Assembly (NCBI GenBank): GCA_024137785.1
Contig: JAHRHZ010000029.1
Span: 35,521,137-35,585,136 of the forward strand
Source of the DNA: Ginglymostoma cirratum
Taxonomy: Eukaryota
Reading direction: 5' to 3'
Length of the DNA: 64,000 bases
A program made the position numbers and the translations under genes. Positions 6,158 through 63,284 of the stretch are shown here, one piece after another; the first letter of the stretch is position 1, and every line of letters starts with the position of its first letter. Below the pieces are notes generated by a model that saw only the letters and a list, made by a program, of their open reading frames with translations, was not told the origin of the DNA and made no database searches.

Positions 6158-6281
6158 TAATGTGGAGGTCCTGATACTGGACTGGAATGGACAAAGTCAG
6201 AAGTCACATGACACCAGGTTATAGTCCAACAGGTTTATTTAAAATCACAAGTTCTCAGAGCACTGTTCCTTCATCAGGTGA
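6158..6281 (-). mobile_element. Short PLE pLTR copy (family D) with decayed hammerhead core
   Basis: Matches the arms of 39385-40354. Reverse complement begins tcacCTGATGAaggaacagtgctctGAGAacttgtga. Confidence 0.8.
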
Positions 6282-6390
6282 CTGTAAAGGGAGAGGTGGA
6301 GAAGGAGAGCCCTTCACAGTAATTTTGGCATGAATTGAATTCATGCCGTTGACACTACACTATGGAGTCATGCCAGCCTTCCCTACTGTC
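6282..6390 (-). mobile_element. tRNA-derived SINE fragment (same family as 32085-32290)
   Basis: Reverse-complement similarity to 32085-32200 (ttactgtgaagg...ctccttctc). Confidence 0.55.
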
Positions 6391-18532: not shown

Positions 18533-18674
18533 GTGATAATAGGTACTGCAGATGCTGGAGAATCCGAGATAACAAGGTGTGGAGCTGAATGAACACAGCA
18601 GGCCAAGCAGCATCATAGGCCCGAAACGTCAAGCTTTCCTGCTCCTATGATGCTGCTTGGCCTGCTGTGTTCAT
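18533..18674. mobile_element. Short PLE fold-back insertion, 10-bp TSD
   Basis: Inverted arms (gaacacagcaggccaagcagcatcatagg / cctatgatgctgcttggcctgctgtgttc). TSD ttcatgttta at 18523-18532 and 18670-18679. Confidence 0.88.
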
Positions 18675-21287: not shown

Positions 21288-21454
21288 AAACTCCAGACCC
21301 TACAATAACCTACACATCTGCTTTACACATTGCATCAAAGTTGCTGGACATTAAAATCCAGCTCTACACCCCTTTACACCTTGCTGGATTTTAATGTCCA
21401 GCAACTTTGCAATGTGTAAAGCAGATGTGTAGGTTATTATAGGGTGTGGAGTTT
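21288..21454. repeat. Long inverted repeat (arms about 72-75 bp, 20-nt spacer)
   Basis: 21288-21362 is the reverse complement of 21383-21454 with 2 substitutions and one 3-nt indel. Confidence 0.95.
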
Positions 21455-23671: not shown

Positions 23672-23901
23672 TAAAGACAAAATACCTTAGATGCTGGAAA
23701 TCTGAAATAAGCACAGAGAAGGTTAGAGAAACTCAACAGGTTTGGCAGCACCTGTGGAGAGAGAAACAGAGTTAACGTTTCATGTCTGGAATGATTCTCA
23801 GCTTTGAAGAAGGGGAACTGGATCCAAAATGTTTAATCTGTTTTCTCTTCACAAGTGCTGTCAGACCTGCTGAGTTTCTCCAGCATTTTCTGTGTTTGTC
23901 T
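23672..23901. mobile_element. Short PLE fold-back insertion (family B)
   Basis: Inverted arms aaactcaacaggtttggcagca / tgctgtcagacctgctgagtttct; decayed TGAAGA...AAAATG core. Confidence 0.8.
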
Positions 23902-24287: not shown

Positions 24288-24331
24288 CTCTTGAGGCAGT
24301 CTGACACTTTTGTTGGCCTCCATTGTCAGTT

Positions 24332-24556
24332 ATGACGCAGTGTGGAGCTGGAGAAACACAGCAGGCCAGGCAGCATCAGAGGAGCAGGAAAGCTGATGTT
24401 TTGGCTTGGGACTGTTCTTCAGAAATCATTTCTGAAGAAGTGTCCTGATCCGAAACATCAACTTTCCTGTTCCTCTGATGCTGCCTGGCCTGCTGTGTTT
24501 CTCCAGCTCCACTCTATGTTATCTCTGACTCTGGCATCGGCAGTTCTTACTATCTC
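24332..24556. mobile_element. Short PLE fold-back insertion centred at 24427
   Basis: Centre reads cttcagaaat-c-atttctgaag; arms are about 95 bp and only the right arm carries the tail. Confidence 0.9.
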
Positions 24557-28720: not shown

Positions 28721-29727
28721 GAGAGACAAAAAAAGCTGCAGGTGCTGCAATCCAAGGTAGACAAACAAGAGGCTGGAAAAACACAGTAAGCCAGGCAACA
28801 CTTGGAGGAAAGGAAAAGTCAACATTTTGTGTATTACCCTTCTTCAGGACTGAACGTGGAGGAGAAAGAGTTGCAGATAAAGTTGGGGGTGGGGGTAGAA
28901 GAATGGTGATGCTAGTTGGACACTGGTAGTAGGTACAACCTGGTTGGTTGATGGGAGGGATGAATCTGGGTGGTAAGCGGAATGGAAGGGAGTATGCAAG
29001 GCAAGAAAGGGGGCTGGGGGATGGGTGGGAAGGTTATTTGAGATTAGAGAACTCAATGTTAAGTCCTGAAGGCTGTAGACTGCCCAGGCAGAAGATAAGG
29101 TGGTGTTCCTCAAATTAGTGATCTGATTCACTGTGACACTGGAGGAGGGCGGGGATGGGGGGGGGGTAGGGGAGGGGTGGGGTAGTTGAAATGGGCGCTC
29201 AGCGAAATGGTCACCTGGTCTATGTTTGGTATCACCAATGTAGAGAAGACCACATTGGGAGCACCGGATGCAGCCTAACCTCCTGGTCACCGCCTATTTC
29301 AAATCACTACCCCCACCCCACTCCCCCTCCGACATGTCCATCCTCGGCCTCCTCCAGTGTCACAGTGAATCAGATCGCTAATTTGAGGAACAGCACCTTA
29401 TCTTCTGCCTGGGCAGCCTACAGCCTTTAGGACTTAACATTGAGTTCTCTAATTTCAAATAACCTTCTCACCCATCCCCCAGTTCCCTTTACAGCTCTGC
29501 CTCCTCCCTTACATTCCAGCTACCACCCAGATTCATCCCTACCATTGACCAACCAGGTCATACCTACTACCGGTGTTTACCTATCACCACCATTCCGCTA
29601 TCTTACCCCTCCTCTCTTTACCTGCAGCTCCCCCTACCCCCACATCCAGTCCTGCAGAAAACGTTGACTTCTCCTCGTCCAGATGTTGCCTGGCTTGCTG
29701 TGTTTTCCCAGCCTCCTGTTTGTCTAC
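28721..29727. mobile_element. PLE fold-back including GIY-YIG end (family C), degenerate 13-bp TSD
   Basis: Minus ORF CIRCSQCGLLYIGDTKHRPGDHFAE; arms of about 430 bp are inverted. Flanks aatattaattgac (28708-28720) and aatgttattcgac (29728-29740). Confidence 0.9.
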
Positions 29728-30412: not shown

Positions 30413-30704
30413 GAGATAACAAGCATGGGGCTGGATGAACACAGCAGGTCAAGCAGCATCATAGGAGCAGGAAAACTTGACGTTTCGGGCCTAAACCCTT
30501 CATCAGAAAACCCTGTCCCGCAGAACGGACCAATCCCCCTCCACCGACACCCTCATCCGCCTAGCCGAACTCGTCCTCACCCTCAACAACTCTGTCCCGC
30601 AGAACGGACCAATCCCCCTCCACCGACACCCTCATCCGCCTAGCCGAACTCGTCCTCACCCTCAACAACTCGGATTCTCCAGCATCTGCAGTACCTTTTA
30701 TCTC
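30413..30704. mobile_element. Internally deleted PLE with a tandem 79-bp RT fragment, TSD up to 16 bp
   Basis: pLTR arm, then 2 x 79 bp (30513-30591, 30592-30670) matching 53096-53174, then the tail. Flanks tcaaatccagagagat at 30402-30417 and 30703-30718, partly overlapping the element ends. Confidence 0.9.
30476..30509 (-). ncRNA. Minimal type I hammerhead ribozyme motif (intact core)
   Basis: Reverse complement UUU-CUGAUGA-A-GGG-UUUAGG-CCC-GAAAC-GUC-AAG; stem I is weak. Confidence 0.7.
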
Positions 30705-32290: not shown

Positions 32291-32440
32291 CTGCTGCTTT
32301 AAAGAACTGAATAAGGTTACTTTTAAATGGCTGTTCCATTTTAGAATCTGTGCTCACCAGTCTTTCCATTCTTTTTACTTTCTACATGTTTTTCTGATCA
32401 CAGTTTGAGGAAGGATTACAATAACTATTGCAATAGTGAT

Positions 32441-32930
32441 CAGGGATGTGTAGATTAAGTGGGTTATCATAGAATCATAGAATCCCTACAGTTTGGAAAC
32501 AGGCCCTTTGGCCCAACAAGTCCACACCGACCCTCAGAGCATCCCACCCAGACCCATCCCCCTATAACCCACCAAATCTACACATCCCTGAACACTACGG
32601 GTAATTTAGCAGTTCTGAGGAAGGGTCACTGCACCTAAAACGTTAACTCTGTATTTTCCTTCACAGATGCTGCCAGACCTGCTGAGCTTTTCCAGCAACT
32701 TTGTTTTTGTGGCAATTTAGCATGGCCAATCCATATAGCCTGCACATCTTTGGACTGTGGGAGGAAACCGGAGCACCTTGAGGAAGCCCACACAGACACA
32801 GGGAGAATGTGCAAACTCCACACAGACAGTTGCCCAAGGGGATGGGTCTGGGTGGGATGTTCTGAGGGTCAGTGTGGACTTGTTGGGCCAAAAGGCCTGA
32901 ATGCACACTTTAGGGATTCTATGATTCTAC
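32441..32930. mobile_element. Nested HE1 SINEs: a + copy (32441-32467 and 32838-32930) split by a - copy (32468-32837)
   Basis: cagggatgtgtagattaagtgggttat resumes at ggggatgggtctgggtggg; the inner copy has the V-domain on minus. Confidence 0.85.
32612..32710 (+). mobile_element. Short PLE (family B) inserted in an HE1 SINE, 12-bp TSD
   Basis: gttCTGAGGAagggtcactgcacctAAAACGTT core; ggtaatttagca (32600-32611) and ggcaatttagca (32711-32722). Confidence 0.88.
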
Positions 32931-35630: not shown

Positions 35631-35891
35631 ATACTTCTAATGATTTTAACTCAAAATATTGAGCTTATTCCATAAGCTTTATTTTGACAATATGATGTTA
35701 AGAAAGTAACTCTCAGCTCTTCAGTTATCTTTCTGACTTAAGGAAAATCAGACAATGTCCCCTTATTTTATTTTTCACTAATTAATGTAACTTAATTTTC
35801 TTAGTCTGCGCTATTTGGGAAGACATTCAAGATCAAGATGTTTGTGAAACCTGTTTAAGAATTGAAGAATAGATCATTCTTAGAGGAAACT

Positions 35892-36052
35892 GAGATGACA
35901 CAGTATAGAGCTGGAGGAACACAGCAGGTCAGGCAGCGTCAGAGGAGCAGGAACGTTGAAGGGTCCCGACCCAAAGCTACCTGGCTTGCTGTGTTCTTCC
36001 AGCTCCACACTTTGTTATCTCTGACTCCAGCATCAGCAGTTCTTACTATCTC
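35892..36052. mobile_element. Short PLE fold-back, about 15-bp TSD
   Basis: Inverted arms; flanks tcattcttagaggaa (35874-35888) and tcattcttggtggaa (36051-36065). Confidence 0.85.
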
Positions 36053-39145: not shown

Positions 39146-39384
39146 TTCAGCACATGGAAATTACTTCATAATGGTTTCTTGACAATCCTTTGGTTTTTCT
39201 GTTTTAAGGAATGATTGCTATTTATGCCACACTTTTCACCACCTCTGGATATTTAAACCAGTTTACAGCCAATCTCACTGTCAATAGATGCCACTAGATT
39301 TCAGCAAGATATTAGATTAGATTCTTCACTCAATGCCATTGGTTTAATACAGCATCTACAACTCTTACCAGATGCAAATAGTCA

Positions 39385-40354
39385 GAAGTCACACAACACC
39401 AGGTTATAGTCCAACAGGTTTATTTGAAATCACAAGCTATTGGAGCGCTGCTCCTTCATCAGGTGAAGTAGAGGGAAGCACACAGGCACAGAATTTATAA
39501 GCAGAGAGGTCAATGCAAGACAATTCTAGGTAATTAAGAATGTCAGAGATTGTACAAATGCTGTGAGTGGAGTTGTCAACAGCTGAATAACAAGCAAAGG
39601 GATGACCTATACTCTGATTAAATAAGGCAGAGAAATAATTTCCAAAAATCAAAAATAAGGTGGCGCTGGAGATGAACCAACTGCCTAGAACAACATGATT
39701 GGCATAGGAGTCAGATGATGAGGGTCTAACCAAAGTAACAAGTAATCCAAAACTGTACAAACTAATTAAGGTAGAGAAATCATACCAAGTTATCAAGGTG
39801 ATGGTGTAAAAACAGGACAGTAAGGAAGATTTTACAATTAGAGAATTTATATGGTCAGGTTATATATAGCGCCACATAAACCCAAGATCATGGTTGAGGC
39901 CACCTTCATGGGTACAGAATTGGCTATCAGTTTCTGCTCGGTGATACAGAACAACGCAGAATCTTGAAGTCCACCTTGAGGGATGTTTACCCAAAAATTG
40001 GGGGCTGAATGTCCTTGATCATTGATGTTTCATCCTTTTACGTGCTATTCAGCTGTTGACACTTTACTCACATGGTTTGACACTTTTAATCACTTGCAAA
40101 GATTTGTTATTCAGCTGTCGATGCTTCACTCAGATCATTTGTACTATGTTTTGACATTCTTAATTAACTAGAATTATCTTGCAATGATCTTTCTGCCTGT
40201 AATATCTGTGCCTTTTTTCTTCCCTCCACTTCACCTGATGAAGGAGCAGTGCTTCGAAAGCTTGTGATTTCAAATAAACCTGTTGAACTATGACCTGGTG
40301 CCATGTGATTTCTGACATTGTCCACCCCAGTCCAACACCAACACCTCTGCATCA
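39385..40354. mobile_element. PLE fold-back (family D), 16-bp TSD
   Basis: Inverted pLTR arms; cagatgcaaatagtca at 39369-39384 and 40355-40370. Confidence 0.92.
40231..40267 (+). ncRNA. Minimal type I hammerhead ribozyme (best copy)
   Basis: UCAC-CUGAUGA-A-GGAGC-AGU-GCUUC-GAAA-GCUU-GUGA: stem I UCAC/GUGA, 5-bp stem II, and palindromic AAGCUU in place of stem III. Confidence 0.85.
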
Positions 40355-40629
40355 CAGATGCAAATAGTCACAAAAACACACAGCTTCTTGGAGTTTCACA
40401 GTTTTAGATAAAACAATAAAGTAAGCAATACTGGAAGACTGTGACACTGGAAGATGGCTGGTGTAAACACAAGTAGAATTTGCACGCCTGTGGGATGGGG
40501 AAGACATTAAGAGATGACTCAACAATGAAGAATAACAAAGAAAATCAATGCATTTAAATTGCTATTCCCCAACATGACAGGAAAATAAATAGTAGTTCAA
40601 GTTTAGAATATAGGAGGTGAATTTTTTTT

Positions 40630-40931
40630 TCATAGAATCTTCACAGCATGGAAACAGGCTGCTTGGCCCAACAAGTCCACACTGACTCTCCGAAGAACAT
40701 CCCACCCAGACACATAACCTACACATCCCTGGACACAATGGGCAATTTAGCATGGCCAATCCACCTAGCCTGGACATCTTTGGACTGTGGGAGGAAACCA
40801 AAGCACCCGGACAAAACCCATGCAGACACAGGGAGAATGTGAAAATTCCACACAGACCGTTACTCAAGACTGGGATCGAACCCAGGTCTTTGGCACTGTG
40901 AAGCAGCAGTGCTAACCACTGAGCCACATGT
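40630..40931 (-). mobile_element. HE1-type V-SINE
   Basis: Same head, V-domain and tail as 23945-24287. Confidence 0.92.
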
Positions 40932-51174: not shown

Positions 51175-52553
51175 AGACCTTAACAAAGGCTAAGGGCTAC
51201 AAAAACCTTCCAGCAATACTACTTCCCTGGCCAAGCTGTTCCAGTACAGTCACAACACTGGCATCTAACCAACAATGTGAAAAATTGCCCAACAATGTCC
51301 TGTACACAAAAACCAGGACAAATCCAACTCAGCCAATTACTGCTCTATCAGTCTAAATTCAATCAGCAGTAAAGTGATGGAAGGTGTCAGTAACAGTGCT
51401 ATCAAGCAGCACCTGCTCAGCAATAACCCGCTCAGTGACACCCAGTTTGTGTTCTGCCAGGGCCACTCAGCTCCTGACCTCATTGGTCCAAGCATGGGTA
51501 TTCCAGAGGTGAGGTGACAGTGACCTGACACTTAGGAAGATGATTGTGGTTGTCGGAGGTCAGCCATCTCAGATCTAGGACATTTCTGCAGGAGTTCCTC
51601 AGGATAGTGTCCAAACATCTTCATCAAAGACCTTCCCTCTGTCATTAGGTCAGAAGTAGGGATGTTCACTGATGGTTACACAATATTCAATACCATTCCC
51701 AACTCCTCAAACACTAAAGCAGTTTATGTTCAAATGCAACAGGATCTGGACAATATCCAGGCTTGGGCTAAAAAGTGGCAAGTGAGATTTGCTCCACACA
51801 AATGCCAAGCAATGACCATCTCCAATAAGAGACAATCTAACCACTTCCTCTTGACAATGATGTTACCATCACTGAATCTTTTACTATCAACATGCTGGGG
51901 GCTATCATTGACCGGAAATTAAAACTGCCCTCACCACATAAACACGGTGGCTACAAGAGCAAGCCAGAGGCTCAGAATACTGTGGTCAGTAATTCACGTC
52001 CTGAATTCCCAAAGCCTGTCCACCATCTACAAGGCAAAAGTCAAGAGTATGATAGAATTGTCCCCACTTGCTTGGATGAGTGCAGCCCCAACAACACTCA
52101 AGAAGCTTGACACCACCCAGGACAAAGCAACACGTTTGATTGACACCACATGCACAAATGTCCACTCCTTCTGCCACTGACGCTCAGTAGCATCAGTGTG
52201 TACTATTTACAAGATGGGCTGCAGAAATTCACCAAAGTTTCTTTGACAGCACCTTTCAGACTCACAACTGCTTCCCTCTAGAAGGACAAGGGCAGCAGAT
52301 ACACGTGAACACCACCAATTACAAGTTCCCCTCCAAACAACTCACCATCCTGATTTTGAAATATATCGGTGCAGCTGCAGTGTCATGAGGTAAAAACCAT
52401 GGAATGCCCTCCCTAAGGGCATTGTAGGTCAACCTACAGCAGGTGGAATGCAACTGTTCAAGAAGGCAGCTCACCACCACCTTGTCAAGGGCAACTAGGG
52501 ACAGGCAATAAATGCTGGCCAAACTGTGGTGTCCATGTCCCATGGATGAATGA
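51175..52553 (+). mobile_element. CR1/L2-group LINE, RT to 3' tail, with internal deletions
   Basis: ggagttcctcaggatagtgtc (GVPQDSV); MFTDG..MQQDLDNIQAWAKKWQVRFAPHKCQAM; STIYKAKVKSMIE; tail atgaatgaa. Confidence 0.9.
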
Positions 52554-52952
52554 AAAAGACACCATGATGCTTCGGGGCTTCTATTATTCGTTGTGCATGA
52601 AAAGAGATTGAAATTTGGATGAAGATACTAATTGAATGAGATGATCAACTTTTCTCTATGCTTTAGAGTTTGGCTTCAGTTTGATTGCTTGCATCACTCG
52701 GATAACCCAACCATGGGCTCGAGCAGTTAATTATTTTAGAATAGAAACAACAATAAACACAAAATTATAAATTTATTATAAAGCAAAACCCATTTATTGA
52801 GATATGGAATTCGTTAACACACAAAATTCATTTTATGAAAATATAAATATGTACAATGCTAAACAGAACAAAAACACACACGGCTCAGGTAAAGGGAATA
52901 AAAAAGTTTTCTCTTGGCAGAATTTCACTTCAAAAAGAAACAAAAACTCTTA

Positions 52953-53049
52953 ACTATGGACGTCTAGTCCCTATAAACACCTCATTTTTACTATGGACGT
53001 CCAGTCCCTATAAACACCTCATTTTTACTATGGACGTCCAGTCCCTATA
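52953..53049 (+). repeat. 37-bp tandem repeat (about 2.6 copies) at the PLE 5' junction
   Basis: actatggacgtc(c/t)agtccctataaacacctcattttt starting at 52953, 52990 and 53027. Confidence 0.95.
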
Positions 53050-54439
53050 CACCTGTATTCCCCATGCTGATGGCCTAAAGGCCCTCCGCTTCTTCCTGTC
53101 CAGCAGAACTGACCAATCCCCCTCCACCGACACCCTCATCCACTTAGCCGAACTCGTCCTCACCCTCAACAACTTTTCTTTCAATTCCTCCCACTTCCTA
53201 CAGACAAAGGGGGTGGCCATGGGTACCCACATGGGTCCAAGCTATGCCTGCCTCTTTGTAGGTTACGTGGAACAATCCCTCTTCCGTACCTACACTAGCC
53301 CTAAACCCCACCTCTTCCTCTGTTACATTGATGACTGTATTGGCGCCGCCTCGTGCTCCCACGAGGAGCTCGAACAGTTCATCCACTTCACCAACACCTT
53401 CCACCCCAACCTTAAGTTCACCTGGACCATCTCTGATATCTCTCTCTCCTTCCTGGACCTCTCTGTCTCCATTTCTGGCAACCACCTAGAAACCGATATC
53501 TATTTCAAGCCCACCAACTCCCACAGCTACCTAGAATACACCTCCTCCCACCCACCTTCCTGAAAAAAGGCCATCCCCTGTTCCCAATTCCTTCGCCTCC
53601 GCAGCATCTGCTCCCGAGATGAGGCATTCTACTCCCGGACATCCCAGATGTCCTCATTTTTCAAGGACTGCAACTTCCCCTCCATAGTGGTCGAAAATGC
53701 CCTCGACCGTGTCTCCCGCATTTCCCGCAAATCATGCCTCACACCCCCTACCCGCAGTAACAACCAAAACTGAATCCCCCTCATCCTCATGTACCACCCC
53801 ACCAACCTCCAAATCCAATGCATCATCCTCCGACACTTCCGCCATCTGCAACCTGACCCCACTACCAAAGACATTTTTCGCTCCCCACCCTTATCTGGTT
53901 TCCGGAGGGACCACTCTCTCTGTGACTCCCTTGTCCGCTCCACAATCCCCTCCAGCCCCACCTCACCCGGCACTTTACCCTGCAACTGCAGGAAGTGCTA
54001 CACTTGCCCCTACACCTCCCCCCTCACCCCCATCCCAGGCCCTCAGAAGACCTTTCACATCAAACAGATGTTCACCTGCACATCTACTCATGTGGTATAC
54101 TGCATCCGCTGTACCCGTTGTGGCCTCCTCTACATCAGGGAAACCAAGCGGAGGCTTGGGGACCGCTTTGCGGAACACCTATGCTCGGTTCGCAACAAAC
54201 AACTACACCTCCCAGTCACGAACCATTTCAACAACCCCTCCCACTCCTTAGACGACATGTCCATCCTGGGCCTCCTGCAATGCCACAATGATGCCACCCG
54301 ACAGCTGCAGGAACAGCATCTCATATTTTGCTTGGGAACCCTGCAGCCCAAGGGTATCAATGTGGACTTCACCAGCTTCAAAATCTCCCCTCCTCCGAAC
54401 GCATCCCAAAACCAGCCCAGCTCGTCCCCGCCTCCCTAA
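53012..54439 (+). pseudogene. PLE RT/GIY-YIG ORF, one frame with two premature TGA stops
   Basis: Track ORFs 52856-53563 and 53789-54439 share a frame; in-frame TGA at 53561-53563 and 53771-53773. Confidence 0.9.
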
Positions 54440-54684
54440 CCATTCCTCCCACCTCAAGCCCCACCCCCATCTCCTACCCACTAATCTCATCCTGACTCCT
54501 TGACCCGTCCATCCTTCTTGGACCGACCTATCCCCTCCCTACCTCCCCACCTACATTCATCTTTACTGGCTCCAACCCCGCCTCTTTGACCTGTCTGTCT
54601 CCTCTCCACCTATCTTCTCCTTTATCCATCTCCTATCCACCTCCCCCTCTCTCCCTATTTATTTCAGAATCCCCTTACCCTCCT

Positions 54685-54721
54685 CCATTTCTGAAGAAGG
54701 GTCTTGACCCAAAACATCAGC
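54685..54721 (+). ncRNA. Inr-like motif plus decayed hammerhead in the pLTR
   Basis: CCATTT-CTGAAGA-AGGG-tcttga-CCC-AAAAC-ATC; GAAAC and GTC each have a G>A change at a CpG. Confidence 0.6.
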
Positions 54722-57299
54722 TTTCCTGCTCCTCTGATGCTGTTTGGCCTGCTGTGTTCATCCAGCTCGACACCTTGTTATCTCAAAAACTCTTTCTGGC
54801 TATTTTGTTTATTGTTGAGGCAAAAGAATAAAATATAAAATGTTCCGATGAGCTGCTTTTTTTGCACCAGTGGCCAATTACATCTACGGCCTTGACAGAC
54901 ACAGCTTGCTCAGGAAGTACAATATTGAGAAGTTCAGTCACTCTTCCAGACAAACAATCAGGTTTCACACTAAATGTACCACAAAATGCTTCAGAAGGAG
55001 GAGACATGAACTGGGTAACCTTTCCCAAGCAGATTTTATCTAAGTGATTCCAAACAGAAACAATTTTCTGAGCCACACTCTGTTCAAACAAGATAGGCAT
55101 AAAGCTCAGGCAGGTAAGATCTGAAAAGTGACTCTATGTAATTATCTGAGGACATATTATTTCCAAGAACCTTGAACATCATTTAAAAAATGCTTAAACG
55201 TTCAAGATTCTTCTAGTGACCTTTCTTTAAACTAATTCAAATACCCAAGTAGAATCTGAAAGGTTTATATTTGCGCAATTCTTTAAAACTCAAGTCCTCA
55301 AAGAAATATCAAAGTGAAGTGGTTTATTAACAATGGAAATAATTAATTTCACTTTACAATCTTCACTGCTGATTTTGGTGCCTCTTAATGTTGTCAACAT
55401 CATTACCAATAAATGCCGGCCTGGAGATGGGGTGACTGTCACTAGGAAATATCTTTAATTAATCAACTCTACCTTTAAAAAAAGGATACTCATCAAACAC
55501 TGAGTATAATTCATTTCTATCAGGGCAACAGAATTCACTGATTTCATCAACACATTTGAGCTATGCATCTGGTAACCAAAATTTCACAAGAGACTATCAA
55601 GCTTCCTCCACTCCTGTCAGAATTCTGATCGGTTGATTTGATGGAGATGCAGTTGTAGATAGAATTGGGAAACCTACCAAAACCTGACTGTGATTATGAA
55701 ATACAAGATCGTCAATAATTATTAATTTGTCCGTACATACTAGTAACAGACTGGTACAAGTCAGTAACAATGAATTGTTGCAAACCTTGATTGCTTTTTT
55801 AGGAAGTGCCTCTTTCAAAATCTGAATTTTGGTTCATTGTCCACAAAAATATCCTCTCATATTGAAAATCACAAAGAAACTGACTGGCTGTGAACTGAAG
55901 AGTTAGGTTGAACGAAGTTGTATCCAGCCCAGTGAAGACAAGTTTCCATTTAAGATCTTTAGGACATATTACAGGAATTACTAAAAATATTATTGTTTTA
56001 TTTATTCTGTACAAGGCAATACTAAGGGAATCTGTCTCTTTAATAAATGATCCCTATTAGTGCTTTTACGATCACTTTATCAAATGACATATTTTATTAT
56101 TGCATGATGACTCATTAAAATAACAGTTCCAGATGTTAGTATTTTAGAAATTTTACAATCCTTTTGGTCGTGTGCAAACAGCAGACCCATTCTGGGCATG
56201 GTACTGTGTGTCATTTTAGAATATCTTTAAGAATGATTTGAGTAGCTTTTCTTCAGACTGTGAAAAGTGTCTGTGTATTCACTATGTGTCAGCAAGATGA
56301 GAAGGAACCTTCTTAAAAAACCTCAAGGATTCGATGAGCAAAAATGTCAGAAATTTAAATCTGGCCTTTTACCGTTTTTTCTATTTCCCTTGCTCAGTGT
56401 AAATATTCTGTGACTGTCTGGGAATAATATTCCTTTAAAACTTTCCCATCTGAAGTTTTGTTATAAACCTGACTGTAAGTCCAATTTTTACTGAGTTGGA
56501 TTGACTGGTGAGCCTGAGAGATAGGCTGGATGAGGAGTGTGGGAATGGCGTGGATTGGGGGAGTGGGCATTTTTTTTTTAAAACACCTACCCCTGGGGTG
56601 GGCCTTTTAACCAATCTGCCGTGGCAAACAGTCGTCCACATGGCTCTTCTGAACTTTGTCCAGGGTCATCTGATCAAAATTCTGCCAGCACTTGAGAATG
56701 AAAATGCTGCCTCAGGAACCACTCTTCCCACCGCCCACCTCCAGAATTCAAACCAGGCTATCCATTGCATTGCTAGTTAATGTACTGGAGACATGTGCTG
56801 CAGAAATTGCTGTGCCCCCAGTTAAGTTATTCCAGTCCAGCGACAACCCTTGACCTCTTCCCAATTATGTGGGCAATTATCCAGATTTGTCCTGTCCACA
56901 AAAAGTAGGACAAATCCAACTTGGACTGTTGCGTCTTTGGTCTCTTCGCAATCATTAACGAAGTGACGGAAGGCACCGTCAACACATTAATGTCTTTGAT
57001 TTTCAATTTCAGTTCTGCCAGGGCCATTCAGCTCCAAGCCTCTCTATAATTTCAGTCCAAATTTGGACAAAAGAGCTGAATGCAAGATGTGAGATGAAAG
57101 TAGCTGCCCTTCATATTACGGTAGTGTTTCAGGAGCCCTTGCAAAAGGAGTGAAAAAGAATCAGGGTCAGGGGGGGAGAGCTCTCCAGTGGTTGGATTCA
57201 CTTTCAGAAGAAAGGAAGGGTATTACAATTGTTGAAGATCAAAAACTTCACTGCAAAACATTGCTGCATTTGCATAAGGGTCACTGCGAACAGAATACA

Positions 57300-58309: not shown

Positions 58310-58441
58310 GAGATAGCAGGAACTGCAGATGCTGGAGAATCTGAGATAACAAGGTGTAGAGCTGGATGAACACAGTAGGCCAAGCAGCATCAGAGGAGCA
58401 GGAAGGCTGATGTTTCGGGCCTAGACCCTTCTTCAGAAAAT
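58310..58441 (-). mobile_element. Short PLE pLTR unit with tail and hammerhead core
   Basis: Reverse complement ATTTT-CTGAAGA-AGGG-tctagg-CCC-GAAAC-ATC..., running through gttatctc and the tail. Confidence 0.9.
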
Positions 58442-59893: not shown

Positions 59894-60093
59894 GTTAAAA
59901 CACAGAGCTGGAGGAGCACAGCAGGTCAGACAGCATCAGAGGAGCATGAAAGTCATCGTTTTGGGTCTGGACCCTTCGCCAGGATCTGAAACATCGACTT
60001 TCCTGCTCCTGTGGTGCTGTCTGACCTGCTGTGCTCCTCCAGCTCCACGTTTTATTGACTCTGACTTTCAGCATCTGCAGTCCTTGCTATCCC
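59894..60093. mobile_element. Short PLE fold-back
   Basis: Arms gagctggaggagcacagcaggtcagacagca / tgctgtctgacctgctgtgctcctccagctc; tail on the right arm only. Confidence 0.88.
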
Positions 60094-61760: not shown

Positions 61761-63205
61761 GTGAAGGTCCAGTGAGAATAACAGCCCTTGACATGGAGGC
61801 TGCATACAACTGAGTCTATCATCAAGGAGCCCTAACAAAACTGTAATCGATGGGTATGAGGGAACGAAGTCCATGCTGGTTGGAATCTTAAAAACTGAAA
61901 GAACTGCGGATTCTGTAAATCAGAGACAAAAATAGAAATTGCTGGAAAACCTCAACAGCTCAACACCACCTTGTTGAGGGCAACAAGGGAAGGACAGTAA
62001 ATACTGGCCCAGTCAGTGACACCCATCTCCAGTGAGTGAATGAACAAAAGATACAGCACATAGATTTCTTTCCTAAATGACATCACTGATCCACTCTGGC
62101 AGCATCCATGGAGGGAAATCAAAGTTAACATTTTGGGTGAGTGACCCTTCCTCAGAACTGGAGTCATATCTGGCACATAGGAAGATGGCTGTGGTTGTTA
62201 TAGGTCAGTCATCTCAGGTCTAGGACATCTCTGCAGGAGTTCCTCAAGGTAGTGTCCTAGGCCCAACCATCTTCAGTTGCTTCATCAATGACCTTCGCTC
62301 CATCATAAGGTCAGAAGTGGACATGTCTGCCGATGATTGCACAATGTTCACCACCATTCGTGACTCCTCAGATACTGAAGCAGTCCATGTTCAAATGCAA
62401 CAAGATCTGGACAATATCCAGGCTTGAGTTAACAAGTGGCAAGTAACATTCCAGGCAATGACCATCTCCAGTATGAAACAACCTAACCAGCAACCCATTG
62501 ATATTCAATGGTGTTACCGTCACTGAATCCCCCACTATCAACATCCTGGGAATTACCATTGACCAGAAACTTAGCTGGACTCACCACATAAACACAGTGG
62601 CTACAAGAGCAGGTCAGAGTCTTGGAATGAGTACTGCAATGAGTAATGCCCCTCCTGACTCCCCAGAGCCTGACCACCATCTACAAGGCATAAGCCAGGA
62701 GTGTGATGAAATGTTCCCCAGTGGCCTGGATGGGTGAAGCTCCAATAACATGCAAGAACCTTGACATCATCCAGGACAAAACAGCCCGTTTGATTAGCAC
62801 CACATCCACAAACATCCATTCCCTCCACCAATGATGCTCAGTACCAGCAGTATGTACTATCCACCAGACACACTGCAGAAATTCACCAAAAATTCTTATG
62901 CAGCACCTTTCAAACCTGTGACCACTTCCAACTGGAAGGACAAGGGCAGCAGATACATGGGAACACTAACCCCTGCAAGTTGCTCCCGAAGCCACTCACC
63001 ATCCTTGGAAATATATCGTTGTTCCTTCAGTGTCACTGGGTCAAAATCCTCGAAATCCCTTCCTAAGGACATTATGAAACTACCTATAGCACAAGGACTG
63101 CAGTGGTTCAAGAAGGCAGCTCAACACCACCTTGTTGAGGGCAACAAGGGAAGGACAATAAATACTGGCCCAGTCAGTGACACCCATCTCCAGTGAGTGA
63201 ATGAA
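61757..63205 (+). mobile_element. CR1/L2-group LINE, RT to tail, interrupted by a PLE
   Basis: GVPQGSVLGPTIFSCFINDL and SADD (62236-62337); same family as 51175-52553. Confidence 0.9.
61891..62159 (-). mobile_element. Short PLE (family B) carrying a 139-bp templated insert
   Basis: pLTR halves flank 61956-62094; degenerate TSD tggaatctta / tggagtcata. Confidence 0.85.
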
Positions 63206-63284
63206 CAAAAGATACAGCGCATAGATTTCTTTCCTAAATGACATCACTGATCCACATGCATTCTCGTTACTAGTTTATCATAAA

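Follow-up and report, generated by a model that had tools for sequence, protein, structure and literature searches.

The sequence at positions 40231-40267 of the window (the whole 64,000-nucleotide stretch of Ginglymostoma cirratum contig JAHRHZ010000029.1 analysed here) is an old copy of the hammerhead motif of a Penelope-like retrotransposon, an element with a reverse transcriptase (RT), a zinc linker, and a GIY-YIG endonuclease. The copy itself is likely inert. In the active parents of such copies, the transcript likely opened with the motif, as roughly its first 35 bases, and the template of newly inserted copies would have been RNA that had not been cut; to this reading as a whole we assign a probability of roughly two in three. 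We infer the start site, the capping of the RNA, and any cleavage from sequence; a dependence of cleavage on dimers fits both the layout of the motif and the literature.

The motif opens with a stem I of four Watson-Crick pairs, followed by the core CUGAUGA with an extra A, a stem II of five pairs (one of them G-U) closed by a 3-base loop, and GAAA. A G-C pair occupies positions 15.2/16.2, the triplet is CUU, and the predicted cut lies after 40263. This is the layout given in a preliminary description of this DNA, and each of its parts (stems I and II, core, extra A, GAAA, and CUU) is confirmed. The same description took the palindrome AAGCUU to be a reduced stem III. The six bases are self-complementary, as stated, but they cannot all serve as stem III; under standard hammerhead numbering the first A and last U are accounted for as core A14 and cleavage-site U17, which would leave the AGCU between them as helix III of an active dimer. 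The six-base form is typical of family A (defined below), in which U17 is present in 58 of 59 copies. A descriptor of the minimal type I layout finds 25 motifs, 20 of them with a stem I of at least 3 pairs, in 591,466 readable bases comprising the window and 100 blind 10-kb genome stretches. The corresponding means in 20 Markov simulations are 0.55 and 0, and the reversed sequence gives 0. A smaller scan gave 10 motifs in 277,025 readable bases vs 1 in 12 simulated controls together. None of the 19 Rfam matches in the window, taken up to E=10, is to a hammerhead family. The motif at 40231-40267 is a real hammerhead motif, beyond chance.

The motif lies within a single old Penelope-like insertion (39381-40354) that consists of two inverted arms flanked by a duplication (Table 1). 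The arms are 84-86% alike, the tail is present on the plus arm only, and one arm of this inverted pair carries a decayed motif. This combination of arms in inverted orientation, a single tail, and a duplication at the flanks matches published Penelope layouts, as far as the available sections of those papers go (PMC8557442, PMC3846280). The closest genomic relatives of the arm that carries 40231 are 82-85% identical to it, and the genome contains just 60 exact matches to the 31-letter motif of family A; thus, family A is old. The 40231 copy is likely a fossil, inert at its locus. When the motif is folded in isolation, stems I and II are predicted, but the addition of downstream context replaces stem II, and the hammerhead fold is not the predicted minimum for this copy in its own context. 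Folding z-scores are unsupportive: -0.27 for the 37-mer, 0.05 with 89 bases of context, and -0.20 and -1.20 for family B.

Table 1. Hammerhead motifs, element parts, and related copies in the window
Feature	Position	Strand	Remarks
Minimal type I hammerhead motif, family A	40231..40267	+	All core letters kept
Inverted pseudo-LTR arm	40030..40354	+	Start approximate; optional tail at about 40317-40354
Other arm, without tail	39381..40029	-	Decayed endonuclease end (about 39860-40029), 3' UTR, TATAAA 39494-39499, decayed motif 39430-39466
Flanking duplication, left copy	39369..39384	+	16 bases; last 4 bases shared with element end
Flanking duplication, right copy	40355..40370	+	
Initiator-like YYANWYY	40226..40232	+	A at 40228, 7 bases before core; putative transcription start of the family
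Position of family A TATA box	40198..40203	+	Mutated in the 40231 copy
Intact motif, young family B	30476..30509	-	Triplet GUC; copy starts at -3
Short family B copy	58311..58439	-	Starts at -3; palindrome broken
Two decayed family B copies, head to head	24320..24534		Both start at -4/-5
Short family C copy	32610..32710	+	Starts at -5; G12 lost
Short decayed family A copy	6165..6291	-	With tail
Family D insertion, two inverted arms	28757..29727		Endonuclease remnants; decayed motifs (28847, minus strand)
5'-truncated family B element	52850..54785	+	RT, zinc linker, GIY-YIG, 3' UTR, TATA-like box at 54656, decayed motif from 54688

Eight sites in the window had been named as intact or decayed examples of the motif. 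All eight exist, but the whole core and palindrome are kept only at 40231 and at 30476-30509, where the intact minus-strand motif is as described. The 15.2/16.2 pair is lost at 58436, 24432, and 54691, and the core is changed at 32615, 39462, 54691, and 6277. Rather than about four divergent families, the named sites represent three: A (40231, 39430, 6245), B (30476, 58409, 24432, 54691), and C (32615). A fourth family, D, is present at 28847 on the minus strand, a site not named before. There is also a fifth (E), whose decayed motif follows an endonuclease with 47-48% identity to that of B (locus L132, position 1027 on the minus strand and 2306 on the plus strand).

Other repeats share the window. 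Head-to-head hairpins of short copies at 24320-24534, 59896-60054, 35885-36028, 18589-18674, and 23709-23897 give weak, sub-cut-off Rfam microRNA matches; such hairpins are potential double-stranded RNA if transcribed. A near-perfect inverted repeat at 21288-21454 (arms of 47 and 27 bases), which has no match to the hammerhead seeds, is possibly a small DNA transposon. Two 1-kb copies of another repeat, 75% alike, lie at 51525-52562 and 62170-63215, and the frame at 62798-63196 resembles a LINE remnant. Copies of a further short repeat, at 40630-40800 and 32430-32600, may resemble the HE1 SINE of sharks and rays.

The view that the hammerhead-bearing repeats are the ends of Penelope-like elements rather than ordinary SINEs is borne out by family B, in which the order is RT, zinc linker, GIY-YIG, 3' UTR, motif. 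The short copies are colinear with the element's own 3' end. Pfam matches of the family B element in the window are RVT_1 (E=7.8e-7) and GIY-YIG (E=0.012), and GIY-YIG is above the cut-off at two other loci (L062 and L093). A single frame in L093 holds both RT and GIY-YIG, which in the window (52850-54436) are present in separate frames. In family A, motif and tblastn comparisons show that RT loci run via a cysteine (zinc) linker and a GIY-YIG-like region to the family A repeat. Identity between the endonucleases of A and B is only 27-31%. In families C and D, the link is to the endonuclease only: the motif lies downstream of endonuclease remnants 51-72% identical to that of B. Pfam gave no match for the family A RT piece or the family D frame, a PDB sequence search with the RT-endonuclease frame gave 0 matches, and no host exon was identified among the long frames listed in the window. 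In families A and B a CX2-5CxxC linker precedes the endonuclease, a feature common to the Neptune and Nematis clades. In the available part of PMC8557442, these clades share with the shark elements the RT, this linker, a GIY-YIG with two internal cysteines, and inverted and partial-tandem insertions; the linker does not distinguish Neptune from Nematis. The young family B copy at 30476-30509 follows a piece of the RT gene in the opposite orientation; in this young insertion the 84-base piece is tandemly duplicated (30509-30671, 98.8%).

Compensatory change in the stems, to which the preliminary description had pointed as a check, is present across families. Between A and C both sides are changed in 7 of the 10 stem pairs, and the commonest pair still pairs in all 10. 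Given in the order A, B, C, the commonest pairs of stem I are C-G, U-A, U-A (I.1); A-U, U-A, U-A (I.2); C-G, U-G, G-C (I.3); and U-A, mixed, A-U (I.4), with only 2 pairs in the stem I of older B copies. In stem II, II.1 and II.2 are G-C in all three families, and the remaining pairs are A-U, G-C, G-C (II.3); G-C, U-G or U-A, U-A (II.4); and C-G, none, C-G (II.5). The 15.2-16.2 pair is G-C, C-G, C-G. The extra A is present in all 139 copies of A, B, and C together. The double-sided changes between A and C and the constancy of the extra A indicate that selection acted on the fold in the parents.

Single copies, once inserted, decay like dead repeats. All 11 invariant letters are kept in 20 of 59 copies of family A, 37 of 49 of B, and 11 of 31 of C, and CpG decay at G12 amounts to 12-44%. 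Selection on single copies was ruled out: among 48 family A copies the core is kept at 0.886 vs 0.92 for the flanks. In each of the three families, non-CpG core sites depart a little less than the flanks do, which may be explained by subfamily differences in the flanks. A conserved start codon within the core was also considered and ruled out, position 7 being U in A and young B and A or G elsewhere.

Family B includes young copies. The 33 bases of its intact motif (30476-30508) have 28,821 exact matches in the genome (control, 0), and the young copies have a mean identity of 98.4% to one natural copy among the matches listed. By comparison, totals of about 4,000 (coelacanth) and 9,000 (Xenopus) are given in the available part of PMC4209133. 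Extrapolation from the blind sample yields 1.2-2.8e5 intact motifs in the genome, a figure that is about twofold too high, since that sample held 8 exact 33-mers vs 3.5 expected.

The ends of the copies carry the argument about the RNA template. Positions are numbered here from the C of CUGA, so that a cut would follow +27 in B, +28 in A, and +29 in C. The sequence YYANWYY is the initiator consensus, and the A of a site of this kind is found at the foot of stem I, at -7 in A, -4 in B, and -4 in C. In copies that retain the upstream part, a TATA-like hexamer precedes this A by 30 (A), 31 (B), or 29 (C) bases. By chance, such a hexamer lies 28-32 bases before 55 of 7,331 initiator-like sites in the genome. 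The TATA boxes of families D and E, known from 1 and 2 copies, respectively, fit poorly.

In families A, B, and C, the copies tend to begin at this site. Of the family A copies, 28/30 start at -3 to -10, 12 of these at -7/-8. For young family B, the first 100 exact matches listed gave 90 distinct copies, 86 of them scorable; 41 of the 86 start at -2 to -6, 4 at -9 to -40, and 41 beyond -40. These two sets are blind to ends inside the motif, because the patterns by which they were selected include bases -3 to -1 or -2 to -1; the blind sample can show such ends. In that sample, 30 of 93 family B copies start at -7 to -1 and 19 reach further upstream (p=2e-14 for starts at -7 to -1 vs a flat spread over -30 to +60, 77 copies), and only 4 of the 93 start near the cut site (+27 to +33; p=0.85 for an excess). 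Family C is similar, with 17 of 58 starts at -7 to -3 and 7 further upstream. Some starts are unexplained, namely 9/58 at +22 to +24 in family C and 5/93 at +21 in family B. The start limit shifts together with the initiator, from -7 in A to -4 in both B and C, though the three sequences differ. Among 30 loci with the start of the gene, the core was found in 9; 4 of these (L219, L221, L223, L235) start at the boundary and 5 continue into 3' UTR. Since the copies end at the initiator-like A and not at the cut site, uncut RNA would have been the template. Among the 16 non-template letters before the initiator A that are not C, 9 are G (p=0.009, a small, post hoc test), and such a G is what a copied cap would give.

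The sharp 5' boundary might also be made at the DNA level, if the endonuclease cuts an AT-rich site of its own or if the cDNA joins the target via a T-run; the match to TATA and initiator sequences would then be incidental. The endonuclease of the green anole element cuts ATT, a preference that extends to its own repeat (PMC11167929), and the boundary of family B is ATTT. T-runs are lengthened as well, with extra Ts at 17 of 41 young family B ends, and many short copies are head to head. However, the boundaries of A (ACTTCAC) and C (CAGTT) are without ATT or a long T-run, yet the limit still lies 29-31 bases behind a TATA-like box, and other AT-rich runs in family B (-35 to -27; +31) gather few ends. 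A boundary made in this way is judged unlikely.

The scarcity of ends near the cut site bears on the model of 2014, in which efficient cutting of dimers would produce unit-length RNA that is circularised and templates new copies, with the cut site as the boundary of the replicating unit. Because the motif would be made whole again in a circle, no ends need be left at the cut site, but a circle without a 5' end cannot explain the pile at the initiator. The palindrome is kept through the G-C/C-G swap, and for A and C the folding energies favour a dimer (-13 to -17 kcal/mol), whereas for the family B monomer the preferred structure is a hairpin in which core and cut site are paired (-9.3 vs -2 to -3.4 kcal/mol). 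Direct motif pairs, 147-570 bases apart, are present in 5 of the 30 gene-start loci. Dimer cleavage is reported for other elements in the accessible portions of PMC4209133 and PMC6765202; activity in vitro is low, however (PMC4209133), and 1 of 9 dimers was cut according to the accessible portion of a recent preprint (bioRxiv 10.64898/2026.07.22.740005). Nor do read ends pile up at the cut site in a poly(A) run, which is of low power. Replication through such circles appears distinctly unlikely, more so than a boundary made in the DNA.

The poly(A) run placed 34,928 of 12,895,792 records on a young copy, with no pile-up of ends at the start or the cut site. Reads of this copy have about equal directions, and 91% run into unrelated sequence; thus, the run has little power and mostly samples copies within host transcripts. 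A second raw RNA run gave 10 reads. The 2,610 reads at the gene start showed no pile-up of ends and no splice joint. At L225:1215-1578 about 0.27% of the poly(A) records of run X18 match a 364-base repeat end, mostly as passengers of host transcripts.

The 3' ends of young family B are also discrete: 50/90 fall at +86 to +98 and 33/90 at +125 to +134, two sites ~34 bases apart. About half of the young copies are short (100-135 bases), and, with discrete ends on both sides, these could be taken for an independent non-autonomous family, SINE- or retrozyme-like, made from its own short transcripts. Short tandem runs do occur (L203), and the available part of the same preprint (bioRxiv 2026.07.22.740005) reports retrozymes from such repeats in one cartilaginous fish; animal non-LTR retrozymes are likewise non-coding, hammerhead-bearing, and derived from Penelope-like repeats. 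However, they form tandem arrays with intact motifs, whereas the copies here are mostly solo, inverted, or joined to gene remnants. In addition, the short copies are without an upstream TATA-like box, and their motif is identical letter for letter to that of gene-bearing copies. An independent origin is very improbable.

Under the reading preferred here, that of copying from the 5' end of uncut RNA, RNA polymerase II would start at the initiator A, with the TATA box supplied by the 3' UTR of an upstream copy. The element protein would then start reverse transcription inside the RNA (at about +93 or +127 in family B), and its run-off at the 5' end of uncut RNA would yield promoterless copies of 100-135 bases as well as head-to-head pairs. 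Longer copies would derive from the downstream repeat. Cutting would require two motifs that pair via the 4-base palindrome, probably with the help of the element protein; it would shorten the RNA by a capped piece of about 32-36 bases and would not set the ends of inserted copies. A stronger version is possible, though doubtful: the hammerhead would be the first thing transcribed, half of the insertions would be strong-stop-like cDNAs off capped, uncut RNA, and the ribozyme would be a protein-triggered self-decapping switch: with the element protein bound a little way downstream, cutting would take off the cap and would stop or redirect translation, and no unit-length replicon would be released.

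The 5' leader of family B, one stretch of which has 1,105 exact matches, extends to a long frame that starts at about +166. In young copies (L225, L242, L219, L223, L235) the leader contains a chain of upstream frames: one from within the core (+3) stops at +45, and a start at +44 overlaps it and leads to a stop at +161, two bases before the long-frame start at +166. The chain looks like an arrangement for stop-restart translation; older copies differ. Mini-elements were also observed (L219, L223, L235, L236, L239), in which a 5' end, leader, and gene start are joined directly to a second short copy that starts at -4, as if RT had jumped templates at the end of the RNA. They contain two same-direction motifs about 260-410 bases apart.

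Many of these features have precedents. Minimal hammerheads in the pseudo-LTRs of metazoan Penelope-like elements, together with the dimer model and low activity, have already been described (Cervera and De la Pena 2014, PMC4209133). In the sections available, those motifs have the same type I layout without loop 3, the palindrome at 15.2/16.2, the extra base between 9 and 10.1, and G10.1-C11.1; they too occur in many families, mostly as single truncated copies, with pairs on opposite strands. No shark is named in the available text or in the one supplement searched. A literature search on hammerhead, Penelope, and shark found no report on a shark as an organism, the sole 'shark' match being a shape. 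A link between initiator, stem I, and copy ends was not found in the literature searched, which consisted mostly of papers outside subscription.

The closest parallel for the copying itself is PAc, a Poseidon element of the green anole (PMC11167929). Protein is required for its hammerhead to cut, and reverse transcription starts internally, on uncut RNA, at two sites that bound a 30-40 base tail; extension on both strands fits head-to-head pairs, and no reads end at the cut site. PAc differs in that its reading frame starts inside the hammerhead, whereas the long frame of family B starts further downstream, and in that Poseidon is without the zinc linker of families A and B. In the part of the literature available, the role of the ribozyme is called unclear, and insertion in vitro does not require it. 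Pseudo-LTRs with a transcription start inside them are known as well, as far as the accessible sections show (PMC2377424, PMC8557442). The start of the Drosophila virilis Penelope lies inside the pseudo-LTR (PMC2377424); unlike the TATA-like arrangement here, its internal promoter is TATA-less, an intron follows 46 bases after the start, and the hammerhead comes after the intron, to go by the portions at hand (PMC2377424; PMC4209133). In the shark families the putative start abuts stem I, and no intron is seen. The repeat of rotifer Pen2a, in the available part of PMC3846280, contains a putative TATA box and initiator.

Penelope-like hammerheads were already known, and what is added here is the mapping of copy ends and, with it, a testable point on how the elements are copied. 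In this genome, the near-identical young copies number in the tens of thousands, and their ends preserve a record of the RNA template. If the reading of the start site is true, the ribozyme would be fixed at the capped 5' end of the RNA, and the solo and head-to-head repeats would be run-off products of internal priming. It would also account for the dependence of expression on a tandem layout, and it would narrow the role of the ribozyme to 5'-end processing or the control of translation.
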